Notes under the pieces: generated by a model
Databases searched by the model: none
Told to the model about the DNA's origin: nothing
What the model saw: the letters and a program-made list of their open reading frames with translations, nothing else
Assembly (NCBI RefSeq): GCF_900167395.1
Contig: NZ_FUWK01000011.1
Span: forward strand, 1-32,000
Direction: 5' to 3'
Length of the DNA stretch: 32,000 nucleotides
Origin: Nitrosomonas europaea
GTDB taxonomy: Bacteria; Pseudomonadota; Gammaproteobacteria; Burkholderiales; Nitrosomonadaceae
Position numbers and translations under genes: made by a program
In this document: piece after piece, positions 5,976 to 32,000 of the stretch
Numbering within the stretch: position 1 is the first letter of the stretch
Layout of the letters: each line of letters opens with the position of its first letter

Positions 5976-6221
5976 TCATTCGCTGGCTGTTCCGCCCAGC
6001 GCCTCCATCAACTCCGGCAACAATTGCCGCAATTCTTCCGTCATCAGAAAAAAACTGCTGTCAAACTGCTCTTCAGCTGTTTCAGCCGGTTCCCGGTCGA
6101 TATCAAGCAAGACCGACCACTTCAACTGCAAGTTACTGTCCAGAATATGGGATTTTATTCCTATGATGTAGTTCAACCGGACTGGGCTATCAAATAACTT
6201 TCCTCCTTTGGCATGAGCCAC
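5976..6221 (-). pseudogene. Duplicated, diverged 3' end remnant of rdgC (about the last 60-75 codons)
   Basis: The peptide ...ILDSNLQLKWSVLLDIDREPAETAEEQFDSSFFLMTEELRQLLPELMEALGGTASE aligns with the C-terminus of the intact RdgC at 9448-10332 (...ILDENLQLKRLTLLDIDREPAETAEEQFDSNFFLMTEELRQLLPDLVEILGGMTAD). The RdgC N-terminal 200+ aa are absent. Confidence 0.85.
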
Positions 6222-10479: not shown

Positions 10480-10555
10480 TGGCGCCCTGGAGACGAATCG
10501 AACGTCCGACCTACCCCTTAGGAGGGGGTCGCTCTATCCCCTGAGCTACCAGGGC
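10480..10555 (-). tRNA. tRNA-Arg (anticodon CCT), CCA encoded
   Basis: Hand-folded reverse complement: GCCCTGG-TA-GCTC AGGGGAT AGAGC-G-ACCCC CTCCTAA GGGGT-AGGTC-GGACG TTCGATT CGTCT-CCAGGGC-G-CCA. This gives a 7-bp acceptor stem, a TTCGA T-loop and anticodon CCT. Confidence 0.9.
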
Positions 10556-16753: not shown

Positions 16754-16761
16754 GATGTTCA

Positions 16762-17379
16762 CTACCCGGATTTTTTTCTTACGCGATCACCTGTACCACG
16801 CCCCAGTGCCGTCAGCAGGATGTATCTGAAACAGGATGTCAGCGATAATGTTTTGATCATCTGTGCATCGATTTCCGCCAGTAAAACGGGGGTAGACATA
16901 TCGATCCCCTGAATCTGCGCCAACCCCGTAATACCAGGGCGTACATCGAACACACCCCGAAGCTGCCGTTCCCTGATCAACTCATGCTGATTTGGCAGGC
17001 ACGGGCGGGGGCCCACCAGACTCATCTCCCCCTTGAGAACATTCCATAGCTGGGGCAATTCATCCAGCTTGGTTTGGCGCAGAAAACCGCCAAAAGGAGT
17101 CACTGCAGAGGCATCGGCCAGATGAGTGGCCACCGAAGCCGTCCCTGGCCGCATGGTACGGAATTTGACCAGAGTAAATGGTTGCTGCCGCCGGCCCACC
17201 CTGATCTGCCGAAACAGCGGGGAGCCGGTATCAAACAACCCGATTACGTAAAGAACCACCATAAGCGGCAAAGTCACCAGAATGCCCGGAATTACCAGCA
17301 CGATATCCAGTAAACGCAACATTACCTCTCGGTTCACGAAAAGCGGGCTTTCTCTTGTTTTGCCGCTCATCTGCCTCAC
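16762..17379 (-). CDS. Undecaprenyl-phosphate sugar phosphotransferase (bacterial sugar transferase family, PglC/WbaP C-terminal-like)
   Basis: 205 aa, one re-entrant/TM helix. Motifs [42 protein letters not shown] and RPGITGLAQ. Confidence 0.85.
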
Positions 17380-17380
17380 A

Positions 17381-18328
17381 CTACGACTTCGTTTCCGGTT
17401 TATGCTGACGATACCACTGCACAGTCAGCGCCAGACCAGCCTGCATGCCGTAAGGCGGCAGCCAGCCCAGTTCTTTCTGTACGGGCATGCTGTCAACCGA
17501 AAGCGAGCCCGTCAAACGGTCGATTGCAGATCGTTTTCCCAATAAATCCCCCACCCGTCTCATCCAGGCTGCCGGTACAGGCAGCAGAAAACTTCCATGC
17601 CCCAGCACAGATCCAATCCGACGAATCAAGCCCGGGGTGGAAACATCCTCACCATCACTCACCATGAATGTTTTGCTGGCAGCATCAGGATGTGTCAGAC
17701 AAAGCCGGATGATATCCACCAGATTCCCGAGGTAAATCAGACTGCGCCGATTGTGAATCGCTCCCAGAGGCAGCGGTATTCGTCGATCTACCATCTGCAA
17801 TAACCGCAGGAAATTACCCCCTACGCCGGGCCCGTATACCAGTGGCGGACGCAGGATGACCACTTCCATCCCCGTTTCAGCAGATATCTGCCTAAGCGAC
17901 TGCTCTGCCTCCCATTTGGAGATGGCATAAGCATCACTCGGCACAGCAGAATCATCAGCCTGAAAGGGCTTATCGCACTCCTCGCCCAGCACTTTCACAG
18001 TGCTGATGAAAACAAATCGCCTGATACCTCTTGCCGCGCATTCCCGAGCCAGACGAACGGTACCCAGCGTGTTCACCCGGTGATATGAATCGGCTGCTTC
18101 TTTTTCCTTCTCTGCCAGCGGTACTTTGGCCGCCAGGTGAACGACACCATCGATACCTTCATCGAACACTCTGCTCCAGCTCGTTTCCCCATCCACTTCA
18201 CCAACTGAAATCTCCTCATACCTGGTGGATATACGCACTGCTCGAACGGCCCGCAAACCAGCTCTCTCCAGAGCCGGACATAACGTCTGCCCGACAAAGC
18301 CATTTGCACCCGTAACCAGAATGTTCAT
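17381..18328 (-). CDS. NAD-dependent sugar epimerase/dehydratase (extended SDR)
   Basis: Start chosen at MNILVTGANGFVG (GGAG Shine-Dalgarno upstream; avoids overlap with the upstream gene). YAISK matches the YxxxK catalytic motif. Confidence 0.8.
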   Translation of the reverse strand: MNILVTGANGFVGQTLCPALERAGLRAVRAVRISTRYEEISVGEVDGETSWSRVFDEGIDGVVHLAAKVPLAEKEKEAADSYHRVNTLGTVRLARECAARGIRRFVFISTVKVLGEECDKPFQADDSAVPSDAYAISKWEAEQSLRQISAETGMEVVILRPPLVYGPGVGGNFLRLLQMVDRRIPLPLGAIHNRRSLIYLGNLVDIIRLCLTHPDAASKTFMVSDGEDVSTPGLIRRIGSVLGHGSFLLPVPAAWMRRVGDLLGKRSAIDRLTGSLSVDSMPVQKELGWLPPYGMQAGLALTVQWYRQHKPETKS

Positions 18329-18342
18329 TTCAACTACTCCAT

Positions 18343-19092
18343 CTACTGCTCGGGCGTCTGAGGCAAACGCCCCCAATGTTTCCAGAAATAACGGATCAGA
18401 CTCAAAGCGTGCCACTTCATGTAGCGCAGATTCCGGCGGCTCGATCGCCGTGCATCATGAATAACGCTGGCCTTCGGGCACGCCAATACTGACCGCCCCG
18501 ATTTCCACAGGCGTGCACAAATATCGACATCCTCGTAATACAGAAAGAAGCCTTCATCAAAGCCCCCGACTGCACGAAAATCCTCAGTACGAAACAACAT
18601 GAACATACCCGCCACCCAGTCTGCTGCAAATGCCTCATCACCGGCAGCAAAGAGATACCGGCCATCTCCATGCCCGAACAGTTTTGCTGCCAGAGATGTC
18701 AATACAGGAAAACAACGCACGCTGTCCTCAATCATACCGCTTGGCGTAACCACCATCGGTGCGATCACACCTGCAGAATCATATGCTCCCTCCTCGATCA
18801 GGATCGGAAAAGGATTATTAATCAAACGAATATCAGGATTCATCACACAGAACCATTCCCCTTCTGCCTGCCGAAAGGCCGCATTGTGGTTCGCGCCAAA
18901 CCCTCTGGCTGCTGTGTTTCTTAATATCCTGACCGGATAAGGATAATCACCGGGCTTAGATGAAATATCTTCAGGGATATTGAGCGTAACCAGAACTTCG
19001 GTAACCATGGACATATCCAATCTAACCAAATCCGCGAGCAATTGCTCAACCAGGGTCGACTGGCCATGACTGACGATAGAAACAGTGATCAT
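18343..19092 (-). CDS. Glycosyltransferase family 2
   Basis: The N-terminus MITVSIVSHGQ..., NTAARGFGANHN and the DxD-like YYEDVD region are typical of GT2 (rhamnosyltransferase-like) enzymes. Confidence 0.8.
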   Translation of the reverse strand: MITVSIVSHGQSTLVEQLLADLVRLDMSMVTEVLVTLNIPEDISSKPGDYPYPVRILRNTAARGFGANHNAAFRQAEGEWFCVMNPDIRLINNPFPILIEEGAYDSAGVIAPMVVTPSGMIEDSVRCFPVLTSLAAKLFGHGDGRYLFAAGDEAFAADWVAGMFMLFRTEDFRAVGGFDEGFFLYYEDVDICARLWKSGRSVLACPKASVIHDARRSSRRNLRYMKWHALSLIRYFWKHWGRLPQTPEQ

Positions 19093-19127: not shown

Positions 19128-19538
19128 TTACCTCACTAACCAGTTTTCTACCTGCAATTCCCCAACCCGGGAAAATTTATCCAGATTGGCAGTAATCAGC
19201 ACACATTGACTTGCCATAGCCTGGGCCGTAATCAGCATATCGTTAGGCCCGATGACTTGTCCAGATTGCTCAAGCACCCAGCGCAATTGCGCATAAGCGC
19301 GGTCCACTGGCGTATCAAGCGGCAACACCTCGATTGCCGCCAGAATGGCTTCCACCTGCCTGGTCAGCCTTAAGGAATTTCTCCTGGCAGCCCCAAACCT
19401 CAATTCTGCGGCAACGATAATCGACGTACATACCGCTGCTTCACCAACTTCCTCAATTCGTCGGGCTATAACTCCTTGTGGATAGCGAACCAGATCAGAA
19501 AGAATATTCGTATCCAGTAAATAACGCGGTGAAATCAT
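19128..19538 (-). CDS. vapC: VapC PIN-domain toxin
   Basis: 136 aa. YLLDTNILSD gives the first PIN acidic residue. 4-bp overlap with the upstream antitoxin gene. Confidence 0.85.
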   Translation of the reverse strand: MISPRYLLDTNILSDLVRYPQGVIARRIEEVGEAAVCTSIIVAAELRFGAARRNSLRLTRQVEAILAAIEVLPLDTPVDRAYAQLRWVLEQSGQVIGPNDMLITAQAMASQCVLITANLDKFSRVGELQVENWLVR

Positions 19539-19774
19539 AAATCAATGTCATCCAACGGTGCCAATCTGGTATCAATATCAGAAAAATTTTCCTCAAGTGG
19601 TGCCAACTCTGCCAACACTACCAGCAAGCCTTTTGGGGGTACCGGTTCAATAATCAAACGATTACCTTCCCGGCGCATGATTACCTCCTGCGCATTCAGC
19701 TCGAATTCGCGAGGAATACGCACAGCCTGATTCTTGCCGTTACGAAACAATCTGACATAACGTTCAGATAACAT
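19535..19774 (-). CDS. vapB: VapB antitoxin (AbrB/SpoVT-type)
   Basis: Start at MLSERYVRLFRNGKNQAVRIPREFEL (AGGAG Shine-Dalgarno 8 nt upstream). The SpoVT/AbrB-like NxQAVRIP motif is present. Confidence 0.8.
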   Translation of the reverse strand: MLSERYVRLFRNGKNQAVRIPREFELNAQEVIMRREGNRLIIEPVPPKGLLVVLAELAPLEENFSDIDTRLAPLDDIDL

Positions 19775-19940
19775 GGTATTACTCCTATTCCTAAACATAG
19801 GTCAAGCATATGTTTCTTCTAACAGATCGTCAATGTATCGACTCGCTTAGCCTGCAAATTTCACGATAATCCTTGATTCTGGTTTTTCGTGATTTTTGAC
19901 TCACTATGCTGGATTTAACTCTGACGGGTAGCGGAACGTA

Positions 19941-20360
19941 GCGATCCAGTAATAACGTTAGCAGATATGCAGAATCACCATTTCTGTCATCGTTATAACA
20001 GCACTGCTAAAGGCGCTTGAATAGCGCAGCCAGCCACAGAATGACATTTCCCGCAAGCGTTTGTCGATAAAGCCCGGTATGGTACAAATCCGCAAGCCAG
20101 TTCCATAATGAAGCATTTCGGAAGCGGGAAAATTCGTCATAGATGAACCTATTTTCCGCTGTCAGTTTCTCCGCAAGCCTGACAACGCCTCGATATTGCG
20201 TGCATTCCACTGCCGATATCTCCCGGACAGCATCAGACCAAAACGACTGAATTTGGCAATAAATCCACCATCTGCCCCGATCAGGTTGGTAGCATGCTGG
20301 CGATAGCGCAAACCGGGAGCAATAAAGCGCCGGGATTTTGCGGGAAATACCACCTATCAA
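19941..20360 (-). pseudogene. Copy 1 (longest) of a repeated gene 3' end remnant ('gene X'), frameshifted; includes about 65 bp of conserved 3' UTR
   Basis: Ends ...FIYDEFSRFRNASLWNWLADLYHTGLYRQTLAGNVILWLAALFKRL* (stop at 20007-20009). The upstream part reads better in another frame (...LIGADGGFIAKFSRFGLMLSGR), implying a frameshift near 20200. Family not recognised. Confidence 0.7.
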
Positions 20361-20465: not shown

Positions 20466-20672
20466 CAAAATGCACACATATGTAACGGAGGACTGCTGGA
20501 TGACATCATCCATCCAAATACTACGGATTACCCAAATCAACGAATATTTGTGATCCAGATTCATGATTATGTCTATCTGGTGCCTTACGTGGAAAACCAG
20601 GATGAGATTTTTCTTAAGACGATTATCCCCAGCAGAAAATTCACCAGGATATACCTCGGAGGTGAAATATGA
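20466..20672 (+). pseudogene. 5'-truncated toxin gene remnant (BrnT/DUF497-like by context)
   Basis: The frame opens after a TGA and has no in-frame start. Peptide ...DDIIHPNTTDYPNQRIFVIQIHDYVYLVPYVENQDEIFLKTIIPSRKFTRIYLGGEI*. ATGA overlap with the following RHH antitoxin gene. Confidence 0.45.
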
Positions 20673-20969
20673 ACAAAGGAAAACTATCACAGGAAGAGAA
20701 AACGCTGCTTGATGCTGTGGAGTCCGGCGAGTACGAATCGTACGCTAACCAAATCACGCAAGAAAGAACTTGAGGCTGCGGCCAACCTTACCTTCAAGAA
20801 GGATAAAAGAATAAATATTCGCATATCGAACAGGGATCTTGTCGCTATTCAGTCCAGAGCAATTGAAGAAGGCATCCCATATCAAACGCTTGTCTCCAGT
20901 ATTATTCATAAATACATATCTGGCTCACTGCAAGATCTCACAGCGCGCAAATCGGGCAAACCCGGCTGA
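20669..20969 (+). pseudogene. Frameshifted CopG/RHH (BrnA-like) antitoxin gene
   Basis: The N-terminal frame MNKGKLSQEEKTLLDAVESGEYES... stops at about 20770. The C-terminal part is in another frame: ...KKELEAAANLTFKKDKRINIRISNRDLVAIQSRAIEEGIPYQTLVSSIIHKYISG. A frameshift near 20745 is implied. Confidence 0.6.
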
Positions 20970-21149
20970 GGTACAAACCGCATCTCCTGTGGAACTGGAT
21001 TGCCTCAATTTTCACGGTCTTCGTGAATCGCAACGTGACATGGCGATCCAGTCCCTGTACCGCCTGTCTCTCTGGATTGCTGCACTTCGTACTCCAAAGA
21101 CACAGCAGATCCAACCTCCGCAGTCTTTGCGAACCCTGCAAGGGTGAAG

Positions 21150-21340
21150 TAATCCAGAGACAACACTAGCAGATATGCAAAGCTGCCGATTTTTGTCATC
21201 GTTATAATAGCACTGTTAAAGGCGCTTGAATAACGCCGCCAGCCGGTTCCACAGTAAAGCATTGCGGAAGTGGGAAAATTCGTCATAGATGAGCCAACTC
21301 TCCGGGGTTAGTTTTTCACGCAAATCTGACAATACTACCT
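21150..21340 (-). repeat. Copy 2 of the gene-X 3' end remnant (with an internal 21-codon deletion)
   Basis: Reads ...VVLSDLREKLTPESWLIYDEFSHFRNALLWNRLAALFKRL* (stop at 21215-21217). The 3' UTR matches copy 1 (tagcagatatgca...gtcatcgttataa.agcactg.taaagg). Confidence 0.75.
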
Positions 21341-21400: not shown

Positions 21401-21721
21401 ATGAAAACCAGCTTTAAGCGCCCATTCGCCCAGTATGTCAAGAAAGCTACCAAACCGCTGCGGCTAGCGATCGAAGATGAGGTGGAAATGATATGTGAAA
21501 CACCAGAAATTGGCGAGCTCAAGGCCGGGGATCTGGCTGATGTTCGGGTTTACAAGTTCCGGTTCAATCAGCAAGAGTATCTAATAGCTTACCGATCGCC
21601 TACCAGAAACACACCTGTTGAATTTATGATCATCGACTTCTATCAAATCGGTACGCACGAAAACTTTTACGACAAACTGAAACAGTACTTGCGACACGAT
21701 AAAAATCCGAGAGAAATATGA
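21401..21721 (+). CDS. RelE/ParE-superfamily toxin
   Basis: 106 aa. ...GELKAGDLADVRVYKFRFNQQEYLIAYRS...IIDFYQIGTHENFY fits the RelE/ParE fold pattern. ATGA overlap with the next gene. Confidence 0.7.
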   Translation: MKTSFKRPFAQYVKKATKPLRLAIEDEVEMICETPEIGELKAGDLADVRVYKFRFNQQEYLIAYRSPTRNTPVEFMIIDFYQIGTHENFYDKLKQYLRHDKNPREI

Positions 21722-22035
21722 TGAGCCATACCTTAACTGCCGAAGAGTTATACGCTGAAATAAAGAGAATGCCGATAGCTGAACGGATTCGATTCTTTTC
21801 CCTGCTGGCGGACAGCGCCTTCCGTGAGGATGATTTCACCCATGAGCAGATATTTGGTGAAACATATCAGGAACCGTTCTCGGCCCCGGAAGCAGCAGAA
21901 TATCTGGAGATATCGTTGCCCACGCTGCGCCGCTATGTGCAGTCAGGCAAATTGGTGCCCAGCTGTATCGTAGGCCGCAACCAGATGTTCTCTGCCCAAA
22001 CCTTGCGTACCTTCAAGAGAAACCGTGGCAACTGA
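21718..22035 (+). CDS. Putative antitoxin with a C-terminal excisionase/MerR-type HTH
   Basis: 105 aa. The HTH segment is APEAAEYLEISLPTLRRYVQSGKL. It lies immediately downstream of the toxin and is translationally coupled to it. Confidence 0.6.
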   Translation: MMSHTLTAEELYAEIKRMPIAERIRFFSLLADSAFREDDFTHEQIFGETYQEPFSAPEAAEYLEISLPTLRRYVQSGKLVPSCIVGRNQMFSAQTLRTFKRNRGN

Positions 22036-22038
22036 GAG

Positions 22039-23106
22039 ATGAATCACGATCACGGTTATAAACTGCTGTTTTCCCACGCTGAAATGGTGGCAGACCTGTT
22101 GCGTGGCTTTGTGAAAGAAGGCTGGGTTAATGAACTTGATTTCTCTACACTGGAAAAGATTAACGGCAGCTATATTAGCGATGATTTGAGAGAGCGCCAG
22201 GACGACATCATCTGGCGTTTGCGCCGCAAGCAAGGCAAGCAAGACGAATGGCTGTACGTTTACCTGCTGCTGGAATTCCAATCTACTGTGGACTGGTTCA
22301 TGGCGGTGCGGATCATGACTTACATCGGCCTGCTGTATCAGGATCTCATCCGTAGTGAATCCATTAAAACGGGGGAACAGCTGCCACCGGTACTGCCGAT
22401 GGTTTTGTACAACGGAGATCATCGCTGGCAAGCGCCAGTGAATATGGGTGAGCTGATCTTGCCTGCACCTGGTGGGTTGGATCGTTATCGACCACAACTC
22501 AACTACCTGCTGCTGGACGAAGGCCGCTACCATGAACACGAACTGGTAGCATTACGTAATCTGACAGCCGCGTTATTCCGACTGGAGAACAGTCGCACCC
22601 CGGAAGATGTCCAACAAGTATTGCAGGCATTAATCACTTGGTTGCATACCCCGGAACAAGACAGCCTGCGACGTGCATTTACTGTCTGGCTAAAACGGGT
22701 ATTCTTACCAGGCAGAATGCCCAAAACCAGCTTCGATGAAATTCATGATTTACAGGAGGTATACAGCATGCTTTCAGAACGTGTCAAAGATTGGACCAAA
22801 GACTGGAAACAACAGGGAATTGAGGAAGGCAAACAAATCGGTATCCAGGAAGGTAAGCGGATAGGTATCCAGGAAGGCAAACAGATAGGTATCCGTGAAG
22901 GACGGCAGGAAGGACGGCAGGAAGGACGGCAGGAAGGACGATTGGAGGGTGAGGTAGAATTTTTTTTGAGGCTGCTGGAACGAAAATTTGGTCCGGCAGA
23001 TGAAATTACCCAGACTCGTATTAAATCTGCAGATTCGCAGACTTTGTTGCGCTGGGGTGAGCGGATTCTGGTAGCACAAACTATCGAAGAAGTATTCGAA
23101 GAGTAA
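22039..23106 (+). CDS. Rpn-family recombination-promoting nuclease / putative transposase (YhgA-like PD-(D/E)XK)
   Basis: N-terminus MNHDHGYKLLFSHAEMVADLLRGF, then ...DDIIWRL...YVYLLLEFQST (D...ExQ/K nuclease core). The C-terminal EG-rich repeats are typical of Rpn/YhgA proteins. Confidence 0.8.
   Translation: MNHDHGYKLLFSHAEMVADLLRGFVKEGWVNELDFSTLEKINGSYISDDLRERQDDIIWRLRRKQGKQDEWLYVYLLLEFQSTVDWFMAVRIMTYIGLLYQDLIRSESIKTGEQLPPVLPMVLYNGDHRWQAPVNMGELILPAPGGLDRYRPQLNYLLLDEGRYHEHELVALRNLTAALFRLENSRTPEDVQQVLQALITWLHTPEQDSLRRAFTVWLKRVFLPGRMPKTSFDEIHDLQEVYSMLSERVKDWTKDWKQQGIEEGKQIGIQEGKRIGIQEGKQIGIREGRQEGRQEGRQEGRLEGEVEFFLRLLERKFGPADEITQTRIKSADSQTLLRWGERILVAQTIEEVFEE
22768..23106 (+). CDS. Candidate intragenic in-frame small protein (RpnS-like, 112 aa) inside the Rpn gene
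   Basis: Perfect AGGAGG (22754-22759) 8 nt upstream of the in-frame ATG at 22768. The product is MLSERVKDWTKDWKQQGIEEGK... to the Rpn stop codon. Confidence 0.4.
   Translation: MLSERVKDWTKDWKQQGIEEGKQIGIQEGKRIGIQEGKQIGIREGRQEGRQEGRQEGRLEGEVEFFLRLLERKFGPADEITQTRIKSADSQTLLRWGERILVAQTIEEVFEE
22816..22944 (+). repeat. In-frame tandem repeats: 24-bp units (x3-4) followed by 12-bp unit gaaggacggcag (x3 perfect plus 1 imperfect)
   Basis: Read directly. They encode GIEEGKQI GIQEGKRI GIQEGKQI GIREGRQ EGRQ EGRQ EGRL. Confidence 0.9.
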
Positions 23107-23154
23107 TGATTTCTGCATTTACGCACCCTTTCATCCCGCCATTGTGGTTGCAGG

Positions 23155-23278
23155 AGTGCAAAGTTGCCGGTTTCAGTCATCGTTACAACACACTGCTAAA
23201 AACATTTGAATAACGCCGCCAGCCACAGGGTGACATTTCCTGCAAAAGGCTGTCGATAAAGCCCTGTACGATACAAGC
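23155..23278 (-). repeat. Copy 3 of the gene-X 3' end remnant
   Basis: Reads ...GSLYRTGLYRQPFAGNVTLWLAALFKCF* (stop at 23196-23198). The 3' UTR segment gcaaagttgccggtttcagtcatcgttacaacacactgctaaaa matches copy 2. Confidence 0.75.
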
Positions 23279-23400
23279 TCCCCACTCTTTTCCTCTTTTC
23301 CTCTTTTACACAAAACACGCTTATTCCAGGCAAGCATAAAAGCGTAGGGTGACGGGATAAATCAGTGTTTCTCCAAGTTGGCGTTAATCTGTAATGTCGT

Positions 23401-23429
23401 TTGACGCTAATATCGCAACGCAATACTAT
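23401..23429 (+). promoter_or_regulatory. Sigma70-type promoter TTGACG-17 nt-TACTAT, ending 6 nt before the higB ATG
   Basis: TTGACG at 23401-23406 and TACTAT at 23424-23429; ATG at 23436. No Shine-Dalgarno in between. Confidence 0.55.
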
Positions 23430-23435
23430 ATACTC

Positions 23436-23717
23436 ATGACGATCAAGACATTTCGATGCGCGGATCCTGAAACCTTATTCAAGTTAGGGCGAGTTGCACG
23501 ATTTGTCAACATTGAGCGTCCAGCGTTACGCAAGCTCAAGCAACTTGATTTAGCACGGTGCATTGAGGATATACGTGTGCCGCCCGCGAATCGGCCGGAG
23601 ATATTGAAAGGCGACCGTGCCGGGCAGCACAGTATCCGCATCAACGACCAGTGGCGTGTGTGCTTCCGCTGGACGGGCACGGATGCAGAAGATGTTGAGA
23701 TTGTGGATTACCACTGA
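23436..23717 (+). CDS. higB: HigB-type toxin (plasmid maintenance system killer, RelE superfamily)
   Basis: MTIKTFRCADPETLFKLGRV...PPANRPEILKGDRAGQHSIRINDQWRVCFRW...VEIVDYH matches the HigB/killer family pattern. Confidence 0.85.
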   Translation: MTIKTFRCADPETLFKLGRVARFVNIERPALRKLKQLDLARCIEDIRVPPANRPEILKGDRAGQHSIRINDQWRVCFRWTGTDAEDVEIVDYH

Positions 23718-23729
23718 TGGAGATTAACC

Positions 23730-24047
23730 ATGAATAATAAATTAACGCCGGTTTCCCCCGGCGAGATGCTGGCAGAGGAATTCTTAATTCCGCTGGGTAT
23801 GAGCAATTACCGTCTGGCAAAGGAAATTGGCGTATCAGCGCAGCGCATCGGTGAAATCGTAACGGGGAAGCGCGCCATTACCGTAGATACAGATTTGCGC
23901 CTATGCCGATTTTTTGGTCTGTCAGACGGATGGTGGTTGCGCCTACAAGTGGACTACGATATCGAGATGGCGCGCGGTGCGCTGGAAGAAACATTGGCGA
24001 AGATCAGACCGTGGGCAAATACCCAAGAGCATGGGACACCGGCCTGA
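23730..24047 (+). CDS. higA: HigA antitoxin (XRE-type HTH)
   Basis: PGEMLAEEFLIPLGMSNYRLAKEIGVSAQRIGEIVTGKRAITVDTDLRLCRFFG is the classic HigA/VapI signature. Confidence 0.9.
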   Translation: MNNKLTPVSPGEMLAEEFLIPLGMSNYRLAKEIGVSAQRIGEIVTGKRAITVDTDLRLCRFFGLSDGWWLRLQVDYDIEMARGALEETLAKIRPWANTQEHGTPA

Positions 24048-24119
24048 TCATTGTTCCCAGTGGATGGTTTCAACCACCATCAAAGTAAGAATACCGGGTC
24101 CCAAGAGCATCTATGTTGG

Positions 24120-24364
24120 CGTGATTCGATACATTACCGATACATTACCAGACCCGCCATGCAGCACAACAAGATGTGCTGCAGTATATTTCCATATTTT
24201 ATAACAGTCATCGACCACATTCATACTTGGGATACAAAAGCCAGAATCAATATGAGGCAGAAATGGAAAAATTAAAAAATGTCACTCAACTGGAGTATCC
24301 GGTTTTACTTGACCAGATCATAGCAAAGTGTCCGGGAGTATTAGGCCAGAACAAGGAGCAATGA
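24120..24364 (+). pseudogene. IS3-family transposase (OrfB) C-terminal remnant
   Basis: ...YQTRHAAQQDVLQYISIFYNSHRPHSYLGYKSQNQYE matches the conserved IS3 OrfB tail (YIExFYNxxRxHSxLGYxSP). The catalytic core is absent. An 11-bp tandem duplication gatacattacc sits at 24128-24149. Confidence 0.75.
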
Positions 24365-24365
24365 T

Positions 24366-26048
24366 ATGAACATCAACGCATCAATCATTGATCAGCGTTT
24401 GGCTGGTGTTCAAGATAAAATCAAGGAACGGGCGACCGAAGAGTTTGGCATCAGCGATGGCGATCGCCTCAGGTCGCTAGCCTTTGTTTACTTGTGCGTC
24501 GAAACCATGCTTGATCTCGATGTTGATGAAGCCTTCGATTGTCTGACCGACGGAGGCGGCGACTTTGGTGTGGATGCACTGCACATTACCGAAGAAATGG
24601 ATGGCGAGTTTGGCGTTACCCTGTTTCAAGGAAAGTACAAAAAAAATCTTGAGGGAAATTCAAATTTCGAACAAAACAGCATCGAAGCGATGGTCAATGC
24701 CATTCGCCATATCTTCGATCCGTCTGCCGATCTTGGCGCTATCAATGATCGACTGCGCGTCAAAGTGGAACAGGCTCGCTCTTTGATTCGAGATGGCCTG
24801 ATTCCGCGTGTTCGTGCCATCGCTTGTAATAATGGCCTCAAGTGGAACACGGATGGCCAACAGTCGATTGACCGTGCTGTTCTTGGTGATCAAGTTACCT
24901 GGGAACATGTTAATCACGACGTATTGATCGGTATCTTGCAGAGCATCAAACCGGTCGATGAAACCTTGCGGTTGACGGGCAAAGCCATGGTTGAAGACAT
25001 GAATTACAGCCGTGTATGCGTAGGGCGGATGCCCGTGGCTGAAGTGGCTGCGCTCATGAAAAATCATGGCGAAAAGCTGCTGGAGCGCAATATTAGACGC
25101 TATCTTGGGTTGCACGGAAATCGTGTAAATGAGGGTATCCGCGCTACATTGAGTTCAAATACGCCAGAGAATTTCTATTTTTTCAACAATGGGATAACCC
25201 TTGTTTGCGACAAATTCACCTACAATGCACTTCAACAAGGTGATTTTCAAATCAAAGTCAAGAACCTGCAGATCGTCAATGGTGGCCAGAGCTGTATGAC
25301 CATCCTCAAAACAGCCGAGGAACTTGAAAAAAATGGCCAGACCTTACCAGCGCAGGCAAGCGTCTTGATCCGGCTGTACGAACTGAGCAGCGATAACGAC
25401 GATGTGGTTCTGCAAATAACTCACGCCACCAACAGTCAAAACCCGGTGGACTTGAAGGATCTGCGCGCCAACGATGCCAGGCAGCAGCAGCTCGAACAAA
25501 GCATTCAAAACCTGGGCTATAGCTACCGACGCAAGCGCATGGATGCAACCACCAAGGCCACCGACATTACCACAGGTGCCGCAGCGGAGGCTGTACTGGC
25601 CATTTGGCGTAAAGCGCCACATCAGGCGAAATTTTTGACCCGCGAGCACTTCGGCAAGCTGTACGACACCATCTTTAGCGAGTCGCTCAATGGCGCTCAG
25701 GTGGTGATTGCAGCCTTGCTTTATCGCATCGCTGAAAATCACCGACGCCGGCCGCATGGTGATGATCCATTGTTCGTCCGCTATGCATCTTGCTTTATCG
25801 CCATGCAGATGGGAAAGCGGCTGCTCAAAGCACTGGATATCAAGCTCAATGGCCTGGACCACCGCAATTTTGCCCAGGCCAGACAATGGATTGAGGAACA
25901 GGGCGAAGCCGTGTTTGTAGTGTCCCGACAAGATATCGATACCGCACTCAAGGCTCTGTATGGGAACCAGGAAATTTCCGTGCAGCAACTCTCTGCCACC
26001 TTCCGCCGTGGTGATCTGATCGGGAAACTTGATCAGGTCGAGGTGTGA
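24366..26048 (+). CDS. AIPR-family (abortive infection phage resistance) protein
   Basis: 560 aa, with an AAGGAG Shine-Dalgarno. N-terminal ...CLTDGGGDFGVDALHI and central ...NFYFFNNGITLVCDKF...LQIVNGGQS match my recollection of Pfam AIPR (PF10592) motifs. Confidence 0.75.
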   Translation: MNINASIIDQRLAGVQDKIKERATEEFGISDGDRLRSLAFVYLCVETMLDLDVDEAFDCLTDGGGDFGVDALHITEEMDGEFGVTLFQGKYKKNLEGNSNFEQNSIEAMVNAIRHIFDPSADLGAINDRLRVKVEQARSLIRDGLIPRVRAIACNNGLKWNTDGQQSIDRAVLGDQVTWEHVNHDVLIGILQSIKPVDETLRLTGKAMVEDMNYSRVCVGRMPVAEVAALMKNHGEKLLERNIRRYLGLHGNRVNEGIRATLSSNTPENFYFFNNGITLVCDKFTYNALQQGDFQIKVKNLQIVNGGQSCMTILKTAEELEKNGQTLPAQASVLIRLYELSSDNDDVVLQITHATNSQNPVDLKDLRANDARQQQLEQSIQNLGYSYRRKRMDATTKATDITTGAAAEAVLAIWRKAPHQAKFLTREHFGKLYDTIFSESLNGAQVVIAALLYRIAENHRRRPHGDDPLFVRYASCFIAMQMGKRLLKALDIKLNGLDHRNFAQARQWIEEQGEAVFVVSRQDIDTALKALYGNQEISVQQLSATFRRGDLIGKLDQVEV

Positions 26049-26211
26049 TCGATGGCCTTCAACCAAACCAGGTCAGTTACGCCGGATTGCTTTGTCAGCT
26101 ACGCTTCCTCGCAAGGAAAGAAGAGGAATTGAGCGCATTACCATGCAAAGACAAAGCGAGCAGGAGCAGCTTTTCTCAATTTTCATCGTCTTCACGAGGC
26201 CGTTAGGCCGT

Positions 26212-26372
26212 GGCGATCCAGAAAATTTGAATAAGGTAGCTTATTTGAACATCGCTGTAACAGACTGCTAAAGGCGTTTGAATAACGCCGCCAGCCACAG
26301 AGTGATATTTCCTGCAAAAGCCTGTCGATAGAGTCTTGTGCGGTACAAACCTATAAGCCAGTTCCAGATTGA
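26212..26372 (-). repeat. Copy 4 of the gene-X 3' end remnant
   Basis: Reads SIWNWLIGLYRTRLYRQAFAGNITLWLAALFKRL* (stop at 26268-26270). It begins 3 codons after the TAG stop of the 26376-27482 gene. Confidence 0.75.
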
Positions 26373-26375
26373 ACA

Positions 26376-27482
26376 CTAAATGATACCAGCGTTATCAAAA
26401 CGGCTTTTCCATGAGTTGAATTCTCTGAATTTACAAATAACTTCTGAACTTGCATGGTACTGAAGCGCCAAGGCTGCCAATTCACCAACATCCTCCACGC
26501 CACGGCTTAAATAGGTTCCATCAGTACTTTTACGTAACGCCATTTCCCCAAAATCTGTAGATAATACTGGCAACCCCAAGGCGCGATACTCATAGTATTT
26601 GATCGGGTCTACCGATTCAGTCAGCAAAATTTTCTTAAAAGGTATTAATCCAACATCGAATTCCTGCATTGCCAGCAATGCCGCCTGGTGATTGCAGGGA
26701 GGTAGAATTTCAATATTTTGTGGCAATACTGCAGGAACCGTTGAAAATACCGGACCAATCAAGCGCACTATATCCTGTGGTCGCACATTGGCTAAAACAA
26801 TCACCCATTCCCAGTCAAACCAAGCGGCAATCGTACCTACGTAACCCAGTACTTTCCGCTCATTATCGTGGCTGCATAACCTCAGAGGCGGCAAAATATC
26901 CAGATCCAATCCATTATGTACAAGTTCCACATCATTCCGGAAGATTGACCAACGGTGCTTCAATGTGGTTGAAGAAGTCAGGATCACGCTCACCTGACGA
27001 ACAAGTGCTTTTTCTCGTTGTTGCATGGCAAAACGCGATAACCCGGAGTAAAACGAGGGAAAATCATCCATCACATCATAGATCGACCGACATCCATTGA
27101 GTCGATCCATGACAGTCAACGCAAAAATAGAGGGTTTGCCTATGACCAGCAATGTTTCACCACTGGCTGCGAAAACTGACAGTTCTTGCAGCAACCGCCG
27201 CCATAAAAAAATATTGACTGTTCCTGAGCTCGGTAACGGCTCTATCGGCAAGGCAACAGGTTTGATTATGTTTAACCAGGCAGGAATGAAAACCTCATCT
27301 CGTGCTGCTTTGGCTTTACCTATAAATTGTTGAAAGTCAGAGAGCAGCGGGAAACGAGTTGGATACGGATCAACCCAAAATACAGACCCCCCCGTCCGGC
27401 CATGAAACCACTCTACAAATTTATGCGGTCGTTGCGCAAAACTTGCCCAAGGTACAGGCGACAAGTAAATCAGTTGCATCAA
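26376..27482 (-). CDS. Glycosyltransferase, GT4/TuaH-like
   Basis: The N-terminus IYLSPVPWASFAQRPHKFVEWF is the TuaH-like W...QRP motif. C-terminal GLIPFKKILLTESVDPIKYYEYRALGLPVLST matches the GT-B EX7E-type region. Confidence 0.75.
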   Translation of the reverse strand: MMQLIYLSPVPWASFAQRPHKFVEWFHGRTGGSVFWVDPYPTRFPLLSDFQQFIGKAKAARDEVFIPAWLNIIKPVALPIEPLPSSGTVNIFLWRRLLQELSVFAASGETLLVIGKPSIFALTVMDRLNGCRSIYDVMDDFPSFYSGLSRFAMQQREKALVRQVSVILTSSTTLKHRWSIFRNDVELVHNGLDLDILPPLRLCSHDNERKVLGYVGTIAAWFDWEWVIVLANVRPQDIVRLIGPVFSTVPAVLPQNIEILPPCNHQAALLAMQEFDVGLIPFKKILLTESVDPIKYYEYRALGLPVLSTDFGEMALRKSTDGTYLSRGVEDVGELAALALQYHASSEVICKFREFNSWKSRFDNAGII

Positions 27483-28573
27483 GTAAAGTACTTACGCAAG
27501 ACTTGGACTATACGCTCTGCCGCCTTGCCATCACCATAAGGTGAAATCCCTCGCGCCATCGCACGATAAGCGAATTCATCATCAAGCAGGCACTGAGTCT
27601 CCTGCACGATTGCATCATAATTGGGGCCGACCAGCTTCACGACACCCTGCTCCACTGCCTCAGGCCGCTCGGTCTCATCGCGCAGCACCAGCACCGGTTT
27701 GCCCAGCGCAGGAGCTTCTTCCTGAATACCACCTGAATCAGTAAGGATGATGTAGGCGCGCTTCATTGCTGCGATGAACGATGCATAATCCAGTGGTTCA
27801 CACAGCGTGAAATTATGCAGCCCTGCCAGGAACTCGTGCGCGACATCCTTGACATTGGGGTTTGGGTGCACCGGATAGAGAAACTGCACATCCGGATTTT
27901 TCTCGGCTAGCGTCTGCAACGCACGGCAAATATTGCGGAACGGCTCGCCGAAATTTTCGCGACGGTGGGAGGTCACGAGCACAAGACGCTTGTTTGAATC
28001 AAGCTCAATTCCCAACTGCAGATCCTTCGATGCGCTCATCAGCAACGCATCAATGACAGTATTGCCCGTCACGATAATCTTAGAATCGGCCACTCCCTCC
28101 TTGAGCAAATTCTGCCGCGAGCCCTCGGTAGGCGCGAAATGCCAACGAGCAAACTTACCAGTGATCACACGATTGGCTTCCTCGGGGAATGGATTTTGCA
28201 TATCCCAAGTACGCAGCCCGGCCTCAACGTGACCAACGGGAATATGATGATAAAAACACGCCAAAGCAACAGTCATGACCGTAGTAGTATCACCTTGAAC
28301 CAATACAGCATCCGGCTTCTCAGCTTGCAAGACATCGTCGAGTTCAGGCAGCAACCGCGCAGTCAATGTTGTCAGCGCTTGATTGGGGCGCATGATGTTC
28401 AGATCGATATCAGGATCGATACCAAAAAACTCGTTTACCTGATCCAACATATTTCTGTGTTGGGCAGTTGCCAAAACCCGGACGTTTGCCCATGGTTCTT
28501 TTTTTAGCGCCAGAATAACTGGGGCCATTTTGATGGCTTCGGGACGGGTACCTACTACAATCAAAATTTTCAT
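27479..28573 (-). CDS. wecB: UDP-N-acetylglucosamine 2-epimerase (non-hydrolysing)
   Basis: MKILIVVGTRPEAIKMAPV..., DSGGIQEEAPALGKPVLVLR and a 364-aa length are all typical of WecB/MnaA. Confidence 0.9.
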   Translation of the reverse strand: MKILIVVGTRPEAIKMAPVILALKKEPWANVRVLATAQHRNMLDQVNEFFGIDPDIDLNIMRPNQALTTLTARLLPELDDVLQAEKPDAVLVQGDTTTVMTVALACFYHHIPVGHVEAGLRTWDMQNPFPEEANRVITGKFARWHFAPTEGSRQNLLKEGVADSKIIVTGNTVIDALLMSASKDLQLGIELDSNKRLVLVTSHRRENFGEPFRNICRALQTLAEKNPDVQFLYPVHPNPNVKDVAHEFLAGLHNFTLCEPLDYASFIAAMKRAYIILTDSGGIQEEAPALGKPVLVLRDETERPEAVEQGVVKLVGPNYDAIVQETQCLLDDEFAYRAMARGISPYGDGKAAERIVQVLRKYFT

Positions 28574-29907
28574 GACCTTACGCCCTCAATAGCCTGGCGT
28601 GTGGCATTTAAATAAGCATATCCATATTTCTTGTCTGGCTCGAGGTAAGCGCCTTCACCCCATTCATTCCAAGCATTGATAAAAATGTAATGGTCTTCAA
28701 GATCTTCTCGGTTCTTGGCCTCAAGCAGAATGTCTGTAAGCCAGCGCTCATATAAGTCGGGCGAAGCTCCCTCAAATATCATGCCTTTATTGTCACGTCT
28801 TGCAGAGTTATCCCACATTGGCATAGCTGCGCGATGAAGCTTTGGATGATTGTATAAAAAATATTTTTTATGCTCGACGATATCGCGGTAGTCCAGCACG
28901 ATACCGCCAAAGTCCTGCATATAGTTAATCTGTGAACTGATATCGACGCAATGTTTGAAGAGTGTTCCCGGATGAAACTCACTCTGCGCATCAAATCCCA
29001 ATTCAATCAAGTTGACATCCCACGTATGTTCTTTTATGCCGATAATATAAATGTCGCCAATGCCTGCTTTAACACAATGCTCACGCCATGCTGTTATTGT
29101 GCTAGCGCATTCTGGAATGAACGATGGGCGGTAAATTGTAAAGATCGGTTTACCATTCATCCTTATATATCTTGAATCACGCATATAAGGTACAACACTA
29201 TTAATAAATGCAATATAACTCTCCACCGTTTCGCTCTGCTTAACCAGGATTTCTCCGCAAGAACCATCAAACCTGCGAGTCCATGACTCATTCGCCCAGC
29301 AAAGTGAGAAGGGGAAATCAATAGTCTTGGCTTCCAAGAACATGTCGAGCGGCTTATCCAGTAAGCGCTTGCCATCGAACCAGTAATAATAAAAACAGAA
29401 TCCATAGATGCCATACATTTGCGCCAACTCAACTTGGCGGCGCATATTATCCAGGATTCGTAAATCATAATATCCAAGCTCACCGGGCAAACGTGGCTGG
29501 TAATGTCCAACATATTGCGGCATAGCGCGAGAAACGTTATTCCATTCAGTCACTCCCTTACCCCACCACATGTCATTTTCTTTAGTTGGATGAAACTGTG
29601 GAAGGTAATAAGCCAGGATTTTTGCATCACCTTCCTTCCGCTGGTACGAACTTGAGCTGATCTCGACATACTCGTTACCCGATTTCCTAGGTATTGCAAG
29701 GATTTGATTAGCATACTCCTGGAGGATTTTCTCCCGACTGACAGATGCTGAACTAGCTGTTGTCACCGGCTCAGCCAATGCTTTTTTCATGCCACGCAAA
29801 AATCTGCGAGCGAATCCAACCAGTAACTCCTTGGTTTCTTCAGGTAACGGAAGCCGCCAATATATTCGACGTAGTAGTTGATATAAATTTTGATTCACTC
29901 TTTTCAC
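28570..29907 (-). CDS. WbsX-like / glycoside hydrolase family 99-like polysaccharide biosynthesis protein
   Basis: ILAYYLPQFHPTKENDMWWGKGVTEWNNV and INAWNEWGEGAYLEP match the WbsX-family signature as I remember it. Confidence 0.7.
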   Translation of the reverse strand: MKRVNQNLYQLLRRIYWRLPLPEETKELLVGFARRFLRGMKKALAEPVTTASSASVSREKILQEYANQILAIPRKSGNEYVEISSSSYQRKEGDAKILAYYLPQFHPTKENDMWWGKGVTEWNNVSRAMPQYVGHYQPRLPGELGYYDLRILDNMRRQVELAQMYGIYGFCFYYYWFDGKRLLDKPLDMFLEAKTIDFPFSLCWANESWTRRFDGSCGEILVKQSETVESYIAFINSVVPYMRDSRYIRMNGKPIFTIYRPSFIPECASTITAWREHCVKAGIGDIYIIGIKEHTWDVNLIELGFDAQSEFHPGTLFKHCVDISSQINYMQDFGGIVLDYRDIVEHKKYFLYNHPKLHRAAMPMWDNSARRDNKGMIFEGASPDLYERWLTDILLEAKNREDLEDHYIFINAWNEWGEGAYLEPDKKYGYAYLNATRQAIEGVRS

Positions 29908-29948
29908 TATCCACCATTTAAAAGAGATAAATTTTGGTCACTCTGCAC

Positions 29949-32000
29949 TCAGCTTTTGGCTGTTCGGATGCCGACAAGCTGGTATACCAAAGCTGCTTTT
30001 TCAGCCCATGAATTCTTTTCCGCATCATCTGCAAGGGCTTTCATGTAGGTGGGATCGTCTCTGGCAACCGCTGCGGCAGCGAGATTGCTCAGGAAGTCAT
30101 CATGCGTACCTGATACTAGACATGACTTATATTTCGCACACTCAGGCAGGTAAGTTGTAACAATTGGTTTTGAGGCTGCCATGTACTCGAACAGTTTTAC
30201 CGGTGAAACCGACTCCGTAAGTTCGTTACGTTTAAACGGCAAAATTCCAATATCATAAAACACCGCATATTCATTCAAGATAAAGTAAGATTTACTACCT
30301 AGAAAATGAACGTTTGGGATATCCAATATGCCACTTTGCTCAAGAGAATCATCATGCGCATATCCGATGAGTACCAGCTCGTACTTGCCATCACTCGCAA
30401 TTCTTTTAAGCAAATCATAATCAATCCATTTTGCCAGCGCTCCATGATAGCCAACTACAATCCGTTCTGATGCCAGCACGGGCTCCATGTCTGCAGGAGG
30501 ATGTGGAGCTGTTTTGCGCCAGTGAGGCAAATCTACGCCATTCGTGGAAAGAATGCATTGGCTCGTCCGATATCTAGTTACCTCCGTAAACAACCTATCC
30601 GATGTCGTGACCACAAAAACTGCTTCATTCCTCAGCAACCATTTGTGCCGTTCTATGACAAAAGCAGGAATGGCGCCCGTAATTTCCTCGCTGATTTCAT
30701 CAATATATTCGTACACTATGATGATGCCGTCACGAATAAAATGCTCAAGATCACTGACTTTTGTTGCAAGATCAATCGACTGCAAGCGCAGCATTTTCGG
30801 TTGTCGAACTTCCAAAAGAGCATCGAACACACATTGCACGACTCGGTCGTCGAGCGCATCAAATACGACTACATTGCCCTCTACCCGATTAAAGACAAAT
30901 AGATCTTTGTCGACTTGTAGATGTCCACCGTAAAGAGCAAGCCCGCCTAACTGCGCTGCCTGCAATGACATATGCTGAAACCGCTGAAATAGCGGTGTGC
31001 TCCACCCCATGGGAACATGGAAAAGATCGATAAAGTCTGTATGCTCGATTATGATCGTCCGTAGTTCTCTTAATCGCCGCTCATAGGTTCTCCGCCTAAG
31101 CTGCTTCTCCATCCAGACAGATCCGAATCTGTGGAATGCGCGCATCGCAAGAGGAAGTGAACTCAACAAGCCGTGTCGCTGGACTCCGTTATTGTAACGA
31201 GTAGTAAGATAGGAAATTCGCTTACGCCAGAGCGGGTAGTCTTTATGCGTAGGAACAGCGCCAGGCTCCATGGAAGCTCTCTGGGCCGTGCGCTGCTTTC
31301 TCAGAGTTTTTCCAATTATCCTCAGTGGACTAGTGATTTTCCATGAGTGACTCCCTTTCAGAGCTTTGATCTGCTGGTTATATTGTTCCAGCCATTTATC
31401 TCGATCAATCACAGCCTGGCTAAGGCTGGCGATCTGACCATCCTTCTCAGTGACAGCTTGGTTGAGGTTATTTAATTTAGAAATAGGGCCGTCTAACCAG
31501 TCCATCGTTTCCTTGGGAGTTACAACTCGGCCAGATACTTCAGTTTGAATAACGGCTTCCAGATTAACATAGCTAATGATCATCCCTTTGTCTGGTAACC
31601 AGCCCAAGCCATTCATTACAGCTTGAATTAGATTGATATATGTTTTACCAAACTCATCAGCGGAATGGCCGAATTTGGTAACGTTGTGAAAAAGGGTAAT
31701 TAACGACCTAAAACAAAGAAAGCCGATCTGCACTGGCTCAGTTGCTTCCCACTCTTTATCGATGATATACGCTCCACCATCAGTAGAAGTAATAATATTT
31801 TGTGGTATGCAATCAAACGTGCTTCCAGGCAATTTAATAGTTGGCTCTGACAATTCTTCAATCTGCCATTTTGTGCACGCAACATTTGCAACAATATCGA
31901 GATATTTTCTCAGTAGGATACAAAGTTCTTCTATACGCCATCCGTCACGAGTGACGATTCGGATAAATTCTTGTGAAAGTGGTATGCCATACACGTAAGA
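29949..32000 (-). CDS. Large multidomain polysaccharide biosynthesis protein (N-terminus outside the window): central coiled coil plus C-terminal GT4/TuaH-like glycosyltransferase domain
   Basis: The frame is open to the window edge. Coiled coil LNNLNQAVTEKDGQIASLSQAVIDRDKWLEQYNQQIKALKGSHSWKITSPLR. C-terminal GILPFKRNELTESVSPVKLFEYMAASKPIVTT is paralogous to the 26376-27482 product. Confidence 0.7.
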   Translation of the reverse strand, partial: SYVYGIPLSQEFIRIVTRDGWRIEELCILLRKYLDIVANVACTKWQIEELSEPTIKLPGSTFDCIPQNIITSTDGGAYIIDKEWEATEPVQIGFLCFRSLITLFHNVTKFGHSADEFGKTYINLIQAVMNGLGWLPDKGMIISYVNLEAVIQTEVSGRVVTPKETMDWLDGPISKLNNLNQAVTEKDGQIASLSQAVIDRDKWLEQYNQQIKALKGSHSWKITSPLRIIGKTLRKQRTAQRASMEPGAVPTHKDYPLWRKRISYLTTRYNNGVQRHGLLSSLPLAMRAFHRFGSVWMEKQLRRRTYERRLRELRTIIIEHTDFIDLFHVPMGWSTPLFQRFQHMSLQAAQLGGLALYGGHLQVDKDLFVFNRVEGNVVVFDALDDRVVQCVFDALLEVRQPKMLRLQSIDLATKVSDLEHFIRDGIIIVYEYIDEISEEITGAIPAFVIERHKWLLRNEAVFVVTTSDRLFTEVTRYRTSQCILSTNGVDLPHWRKTAPHPPADMEPVLASERIVVGYHGALAKWIDYDLLKRIASDGKYELVLIGYAHDDSLEQSGILDIPNVHFLGSKSYFILNEYAVFYDIGILPFKRNELTESVSPVKLFEYMAASKPIVTTYLPECAKYKSCLVSGTHDDFLSNLAAAAVARDDPTYMKALADDAEKNSWAEKAALVYQLVGIRTAKS

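Follow-up and report, generated by a model that had tools for sequence, protein, structure and literature searches.

AIPR proteins belong to the known AbiU1/AIPR family (PMC3506569, PMC13064643), so that their earlier description as poorly characterised is true only in part. AbiU of Lactococcus lactis delays phage transcription and gives modest protection alone, lowering the efficiency of plaquing 10- to 100-fold (PMC13064643), and AIPR genes have been found in association with type III and other restriction-modification (RM) systems (PMC3506569). Here we analyse an AIPR gene of Nitrosomonas europaea which stands behind a higB-higA toxin-antitoxin (TA) pair and the remnant of an insertion sequence (IS) of the IS3 family. 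These elements lie in the first 32,000 nucleotides of contig NZ_FUWK01000011.1 (assembly GCF_900167395.1), which we call the window. An initial annotation of the window had taken them for a single cassette, in which expression of the abortive-infection gene might be coupled to the TA pair. Our analysis suggests that higBA, the IS relic and AIPR are probably three independent neighbours in a hot spot that accumulates genes, and not one system. The cassette exists physically, between two relics of a glycosyltransferase gene; as a functional or co-inherited unit it is contradicted by alleles that lack AIPR, by solitary AIPR relatives in other genomes and by a genome in which higB is split.

We found higBA without AIPR in three sequences, namely N. 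eutropha Nm57 (L016) and two metagenome contigs (L042 and L043), and the HigA proteins of the two contigs are identical to that of the window. The homology of all three with the window covers higA and 86 nt beyond it, and stops exactly at 24133. Past this point the three sequences have ~155 nt in common, none of it IS-like, and they carry neither the IS relic nor AIPR. Because three alleles have these ~155 nt of other sequence in common, we take the AIPR-less state to be the older one. The opposite possibility, that the AIPR-less alleles are deletions of an AIPR-plus ancestor, was rejected, since the ~155 nt are common to three lineages and no IS relic is found in them. CP157069 and CP054389, two genomes that have AIPR, conserve the 3' flank at 26049-26167 on the other side of the gene; this flank travels with AIPR, and homology with an AIPR-less contig of an uncultured Nitrosomonas (L017) starts only at ~26168. 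The order higBA-relic-AIPR is the same in CP157069, CP054389 and one further contig (SRR22572393). The 560-aa AIPR protein is residue-identical on the chromosome of N. europaea ATCC 19718 (AL954747.1, ~519967-541649, reversed), to which we assign the window, and it is also encoded on many near-identical metagenome contigs.

One genome separates the fate of AIPR from that of the TA pair. In JABARC010000021.1 an IS200/IS605-type element, with its Y1 transposase on the opposite strand, sits after about codon 16 of higB; higA and AIPR are intact downstream, and the higBA promoter is displaced by ~620 bp. The ratio of nonsynonymous to synonymous substitution rates (dN/dS) of AIPR is 0.11 in this higB-split genome, and it ranges from 0.11 to 0.31 against four Nitrosomonas alleles. 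AIPR is thus maintained under purifying selection, and presumably expressed.

The survey of AIPR neighbourhoods for TA pairs, which the initial annotation had proposed, turned out negative: outside Nitrosomonas, higBA lies upstream of an AIPR relative in none of the 11 contexts compared. The plasmid orthologues of Aeromonas salmonicida (75.5% identical) have IS3 and IS5 elements and fragments of recombinases as neighbours, and those of Picosynechococcus plasmids (61-63% identical) stand beside a divergent PIN toxin. The plasmid orthologues have no DNA in common upstream of the ATG, and the 45-nt AIPR leader of the window has no homology to the upstream DNA of these 61-76%-identical genes. Of the eight chromosomal relatives five are of cyanobacterial type (~64-66% identical) and three more distant (~47-49%). 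Each of the eight stands alone in surroundings of housekeeping or defence genes, and for seven of them the next gene upstream runs in the opposite direction. TA genes do occur within a few kb in four of the 11 contexts, as defence islands would lead one to expect, never as a co-oriented upstream higBA. No plasmid in PLSDB matches both halves of the arrangement, higBA and AIPR. With AIPR-less alleles, no upstream higBA in 11 contexts and no plasmid with both, the locus does not qualify as a conserved three-gene operon of a TA pair and an abortive-infection gene.

A more distant homologue, 34% identical, was found on plasmid AZO_p1 of Azospirillum lipoferum 4B, where it overlaps an upstream open reading frame (ORF) for an Eco57I/MmeI-like methylase. 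The arrangement resembles an operon of RM or BREX type that includes AIPR, which fits the published association of AIPR with RM systems (PMC3506569). The homologue overlaps both of its neighbours by 4 nt (L054, 14-7055), the methylase having 996 aa and the other neighbour 771 aa; the latter has no Pfam match, and the region is unannotated in the record.

The assignment of the 560-aa protein to the AIPR family is borne out by Pfam PF10592 (2.2e-55, 189 bits against a cutoff of 25, aa 239-516) and by the AbiU model of PADLOC (PDLC02357; 3e-47), which aligns aa 39-517 with positions 27-504 of its 537. The protein is already named AIPR in public databases. At E <= 1e-3 the family counts 6,230 representative clusters, and at E <= 1e-30 it still counts 256. 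Our first homologue search returned only proteins at least 97% identical, with no diversity. In an alignment of 80 sequences with 34-66% identity, residues D66, G68, D70, Q88 and K90 of the N-terminal part do not vary, nor does a set of N/Q/R/G motifs in the AIPR domain. The AlphaFold2 model built from this alignment has a predicted local distance difference test (pLDDT) score of 87.3; an earlier model from 36 sequences reached a pLDDT of 67 and a predicted template modelling score of 0.41, and its Foldseek matches were meaningless. The sole high-probability matches of the better model in the PDB using Foldseek are to FokI (probability 0.92-0.97, TM score 0.17-0.19); one of them, 2fok_B, has probability 0.97, a root-mean-square deviation of 5.7 A over 165 columns and E 0.3. 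The D70...Q88-x-K90 spacing of AIPR resembles that of D450...D467-x-K469 in FokI. Sequence and profile searches of the PDB with AIPR gave nothing relevant, and a Pfam scan of the N-terminal 239 aa alone gave nothing credible. We infer that AIPR may be a defence factor that acts as one protein, its effector being a PD-(D/E)xK-like nuclease. It would be self-sufficient in abortive infection or defence, the N-terminal D...QxK module, similar to the FokI cleavage domain, acting as the nuclease effector and the C-terminal AIPR domain possibly as the regulatory or sensing part.

The IS-derived DNA between higA and AIPR is shorter than initially described. The tail of an IS3 orfB is indeed present: the translation of 24140-24364 aligns with positions 333-369 of the 369 of NCBIfam transpos_IS3 (NF033516) at E 7.8e-8, and over 46 aa the relic has 70% identity with the orfB of a near-full-length IS3 element in CP054389 (L030), which has orfA plus split orfB ORFs. 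The reported extent of 245 bp or more, on the other hand, must be reduced to 187 bp of IS DNA, as the larger figure includes two tandem duplications of 11 and 8 nt. The DNA at 24048-24133 belongs to the higBA module, and that at 24321-24365 lies beyond the IS repeat. We place the end of the IS at 24320 because CP157069.1 has another relic of this IS type, which ends ...TTGACCAGAGCA directly against an unrelated flank, because the end of the window's relic, taken as its reverse complement, can be aligned from TGAT onwards with the left inverted repeat of the CP054389 element (score 36, against 18.6 +/- 3.6 and a maximum of 32 for shuffles), and because TG...CA termini are the norm in the IS3 family. 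With the relic at 24134-24320, only 45 nt of its own upstream DNA came with AIPR. Of a complete IS3 element only the orfB tail and the right inverted repeat are left, which makes it a relic. The second relic suggests that this IS type hit the same locus repeatedly. In CP157069.1 it is an IS3-family right end inside a relic of a glycosyltransferase gene tail (L029, 13380-13590).

The relic is drifting. Compared with three other Nitrosomonas sequences (CP157069, CP054389 and the SRR22572393 contig), the window alone has two tandem duplications, one of 11 nt, with its copies at 24127-24137 and 24138-24148, the other of 8 nt, at 24267-24274. The relic ORF at 24176-24364 ends with the TGA at 24362-24364, one nt before the AIPR ATG, as the initial annotation had correctly read in the window. 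It reaches this position because of the 8-nt duplication, and the same frame in the other three stops at the TGA equivalent to 24310-24312. Since the duplications are absent from the other three, the meeting of stop and ATG is a frame accident of ATCC 19718 and not a conserved translational coupling. The left seam carries a CGATA microhomology common to the higBA flank and the IS, and it falls inside orfB; it has the look of a deletion end-point formed by illegitimate recombination, not of a transposition junction. With the IS relic lying exactly at the seam, a secondary joining of AIPR to the TA pair, as first proposed, is a sound idea.

The TA pair itself is ordinary. HigB matches Pfam PF05015, HigB-like_toxin (2.5e-14, 53.9 bits against a cutoff of 27), and HigA matches TIGR02607, antidote_HigA (9.7e-31, 105.5 bits against 47.7) and Pfam HTH_3 (6.2e-9), so that the pair is complete as first annotated, and with the RelE-fold toxin first and the helix-turn-helix (HTH) antitoxin second it is a HigBA pair of type II. 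Because the promoter-like site in front of higB lies inside the longest ORF, the ATG at 23437 is probably the start. This site, TTGACG-17-TACTAT, is the only one on the + strand of 23100-26500 with at least nine of the 12 consensus positions, and is a consensus match only.

We propose the following history for the locus. HigBA, a type II TA pair with its own promoter-like site, would have been resident before AIPR, in convergent orientation to a GT2 glycosyltransferase gene whose 3' end faced it. An AbiU-type AIPR would have arrived after it, beside an IS3-family element whose right end lay 45 nt upstream of the ATG. A later deletion, from inside the transposase gene to the CGATA microhomology 86 nt downstream of higA, would have taken away the original spacer and all of the IS but the 187-bp relic. 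The own promoter of AIPR was probably lost, and low-level transcription would come from higBA read-through damped by a hairpin in the relic, from weak promoters in the AT-rich relic, or from both. Any transcriptional coupling of higBA and AIPR would then be a by-product of rearrangement, not a conserved circuit, and comparative evidence likewise makes incidental any TA-coupled expression of the kind that the initial annotation had thought worth testing.

The initial annotation saw no obvious promoter for AIPR other than read-through from higBA or one inside the IS scar, and our scan for sigma-70-like sites agrees: between higA and AIPR, over the leader and the relic, there is no site at the threshold of nine of the 12 consensus matches, only sites with eight, and consensus scans neither establish nor exclude promoters. 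That AIPR has no such site is an argument for an operon higB-higA-(relic)-AIPR, in which HigA represses a shared promoter and loss of the antitoxin on infection de-represses AIPR. The genes are all on the same strand as first reported, of the leader that came with AIPR there are only 45 nt, the order is kept in all the AIPR-plus Nitrosomonas genomes that we saw, and a gene under purifying selection must be expressed from somewhere. We nevertheless consider such an operon improbable. Identical higBA exists without AIPR in three lineages, an interrupted higB and a displaced higBA promoter have left AIPR intact in one genome, and AIPR relatives are solitary with mostly divergent upstream genes. 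In addition, the seam region gathers duplications, no repeat of the higBA promoter or operator is found near AIPR apart from short chance matches, and between higA and AIPR there is the stable hairpin, followed by a U-rich tail. This hairpin came up in a scan for terminator-like structures; as RNA it has -14.7 kcal/mol (z -3.8), with none of 200 shuffles as stable, and it could attenuate read-through. A stronger version would have the rearrangement strip AIPR of its promoter and wire an AbiU-type nuclease to the HigA-repressed higBA promoter, turning it on only upon antitoxin loss, e.g. in a phage-induced shut-off; we regard this as quite improbable.

The same hairpin could equally stop read-through and leave AIPR independent of higBA, with a weak or non-consensus promoter in the AT-rich relic or the IS end and no coupling at all. 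Several eight-of-12 matches lie in the relic, e.g. AGCACA-16-TATATT at 24163 and TTTATA-18-CATACT at 24198, an outward -35-like TTGACC is found inside the terminal repeat at 24309-24314, and AIPR is under selection even where the higBA promoter is displaced. Against this, none of the sites reaches the scan threshold, and reading the sequence we found no -10 hexamer at the proper distance from TTGACC. Full independence of this kind seems rather unlikely to us. As to the main source of AIPR transcription, the chances that it would be read-through from the higBA promoter are about even, and a weak relic promoter may have this role instead, which we hold possible rather than likely.

Several observations count against three independent neighbours and should be kept in view. 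With no promoter-like site of its own at the threshold, AIPR possibly depends on the higBA promoter. Every AIPR-plus Nitrosomonas genome that we saw has the same higBA-relic-AIPR order; the uniformity is that of one event inherited by descent, but an arrangement kept by selection would look no different. That the IS inserted first and the deletion followed is read from the end-points only. For the proposed nuclease, the fold matches to FokI are non-significant (E 0.19-0.30). The coordinates of all features are collected in Table 1.

Table 1. Features of the higBA-AIPR locus and its surroundings (window positions unless another sequence is named).
Feature	Position	Strand	Description
VapC/MazE-like pair	19128-19798		
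GT2 3'-end relic 1	19997-20321	-	starts at GT2 nt 651
Decayed BrnT/CopG-like TA pair	20480-21147		40-aa toxin fragment and CopG/BrnA-like antitoxin, frameshift-split in ATCC 19718
GT2 3'-end relic 2	21206-21331	-	starts at GT2 nt 788
Three-gene unit	21401-23106		ParE-like toxin, HTH_17 protein, 355-aa Rpn/YhgA-like (Transposase_31) nuclease
GT2 3'-end relic 3, left module boundary	23186-23293	-	GT2 nt 869-977; wider repeat 23151-23301
higBA promoter-like site	23401-23429	+	TTGACG, 17-nt spacer, TACTAT; ends 8 nt before ATG 23437
higB	23437-23717	+	RelE-fold toxin, 93 aa from ATG 23437; longest ORF 23394-23717
IS200/IS605 insertion in GCA_019186865.1	L041 5133-5752 (JABARC010000021.1)		corresponds to window ~23483
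higA	23730-24047	+	HTH antitoxin, 12 nt after higB stop
higBA-module 3' flank	24048-24133	+	common to AIPR-less alleles
IS3-family right-end relic	24134-24320 (187 bp)	+	last ~38 orfB codons and terminal inverted repeat ending ...TTGACCAGATCA
9-bp hairpin and U-rich stretch	24160-24183	+	in IS relic; candidate partial terminator between higA and AIPR
AIPR leader	24321-24365 (45 nt)	+	beyond IS terminal repeat; Shine-Dalgarno AAGGAG at 24354-24359, as first annotated
AIPR/AbiU-family gene	24366-26048	+	560 aa; predicted N-terminal nuclease-like part, AIPR domain aa 239-516
GT2 3'-end relic 4, right module boundary	26256-26373	-	GT2 nt 861-979
Glycosyltransferase gene abutting right relic	26376-27482	-	

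The surroundings support the idea of a hot spot. A polysaccharide/O-antigen cluster on the - strand (genes at 14786-19092 and 26376-31994), with sugar transferase, epimerases, GT2, WbsX, UDP-GlcNAc 2-epimerase and, further out, Wzt, is interrupted by ~7 kb of TA-type modules, and higBA, the IS relic and AIPR are the last of these TA/defence modules, following the unit of ParE-like toxin, HTH_17 protein and Rpn nuclease. The O-antigen locus of N. europaea is an accretion hot spot for TA/defence genes. In every Nitrosomonas locus that we saw, the ParE-like/HTH_17/Rpn unit is kept alongside the higBA module; its Rpn/YhgA-like nuclease has 24-nt tandem repeats at 22816-22911, which encode repeats of the GIQEGK type. 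The decayed BrnT/CopG-like pair has an intact 99-aa ORF (PF12441) as its counterpart in relatives.

Four direct repeats punctuate three co-oriented TA/defence modules, and on the - strand they read as a protein C-terminus. A direct-repeat search gave copies at 20003, 23192 and 26264. The intact counterpart in N. eutropha Nm57 is the 3' end of a 321-aa GT2 glycosyltransferase gene (47 of 56 aa identical), with which the left-boundary relic is 83% identical over 109 nt using blastn. The segment from higBA to AIPR is bracketed by two such relics of one gene's 3' end, relics 3 and 4 of Table 1. All of them stop ~10-13 nt past the GT2 stop codon, and the internal start differs in each. The array of GT2 relics also occurs in other Nitrosomonas genomes, and its last copy in contig L038 is nearly the whole gene (nt 96-972). 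The modules were possibly added between the relics by homology-anchored illegitimate recombination or by Campbell-type re-integration of looped-out circles. Framing of each TA/defence module by GT2 3'-end relics is the sole feature of the locus that is modestly unusual.

Such flanking repeats of ~110 nt could be taken for attC-like sites, the modules then forming an integrase-less attC array served by an integron integrase elsewhere in N. europaea. Besides the four repeats around three co-oriented modules, the species is credited with an active integron integrase (Leon and Roy 2003, as cited in PMC2426708). We find this reading hardly credible and reject it, because the repeats derive from the 3' end of a GT2 coding sequence, complete in N. 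eutropha Nm57, because neither of their strands folds into an imperfect palindrome (z +1.3 to -1.9; +1.3 and +0.1 for the left relic, which has no attC-like hairpin), because no canonical R''/R' cores were seen by eye, no formal attC search having been made, and because there is no integrase among the 29 ORFs of the window scanned with Pfam. The modules are thus not integron gene cassettes.

The boundary repeat was also considered as a dispersed mobile element and rejected. Scanning 596 Gb of a genome collection on both strands with the pattern TTGAATARCGCMGCCAGCC, which has 17 fixed and two two-fold positions, gave 22 matches against ~17 expected by chance. Only two of them are in Nitrosomonas (N. 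eutropha Nm57 and an uncultured Nitrosomonas), and the other TTGAATARCGCMGCCAGCC matches are scattered in unrelated taxa in a number close to that expected by chance. Rfam and tRNA scans gave nothing in the higBA-AIPR region, and their sole match in the window is a tRNA-Arg at 10480-10555. A 157-nt direct repeat with 84% identity, its copies 3.5 kb apart at 5990-6146 and 9462-9618, lies among housekeeping genes of the window, close to this tRNA and to genes for SCO1-like and RdgC proteins. Another N. europaea assembly (CM135170.1, L002/L036) has a DDE_Tnp_1 element of IS4/IS5 type in the O-antigen cluster, which is absent from the window; it lies between the genes of a 367-aa glycosyltransferase and a UDP-GlcNAc 2-epimerase and adds to the IS activity seen at this locus.

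Adjacency can mislead here. The same strand, a missing promoter and an IS scar mimic an operon, and sister alleles reveal a recent and separable juxtaposition. The locus shows how a travelling, conserved single-gene AbiU/AIPR subfamily, seen in cyanobacteria, Aeromonas plasmids and Nitrosomonas, lands in a genome. If read-through coupling holds, the natural allele series would be suited to asking whether TA autoregulation gates a defence gene; and if AIPR were in fact switched by antitoxin loss, the locus would be a naturally evolved TA-gated abortive-infection module, for which the AIPR-less and higB-disrupted sister alleles would be ready controls. All components belong to known families, and current understanding is otherwise unchanged.

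Each component can be set beside a described system. The pair agrees with canonical HigBA in its toxin-first order, HTH antitoxin second, 12-nt gap and passing of both family models, its sole oddity being the downstream gene, which is missing from sister alleles. The relic has the orfB C-terminus, the terminal inverted repeat ending in CA and the outward -35-like TTGACC of IS3-family elements and of genes placed behind IS ends; it differs in that only 187 bp are left, the left seam appears to be a microhomology deletion and no usable hybrid promoter is evident. With MzaE of the MZA anti-phage system AIPR has part of the AIPR domain in common (aa 222-381, PADLOC 5.7e-18), but NCBIfam NF041935 scores 71.9 bits against a cutoff of 1050 and no MzaA-D genes are nearby. 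We rejected identity with MZA on the MzaE score and on the neighbours, which are TA genes and glycosyltransferases.

RM-linked AIPR genes (PMC3506569) encode the same protein family, but here no methylase or restriction gene is adjacent, the neighbours being those just named. The closest system is AbiU (AbiUi/AbiU1) of Lactococcus lactis, which AIPR resembles in its near end-to-end profile match, the AIPR domain and the single-gene unit. For the AbiU1/AIPR family a nuclease similar to the cleavage domain of FokI has been predicted (PMC13064643), a feature that AIPR may have as well. In contrast to AbiU, AIPR has no AbiUii/HEPN partner gene and is chromosomal in a chemolithoautotroph instead of being carried by a lactococcal plasmid. 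The phage resistance on record is that of the lactococcal protein. Finally, AIPR of the window belongs to a highly conserved subfamily of ~555 aa, together with proteins of cyanobacteria and Aeromonas plasmids at 61-76% identity.

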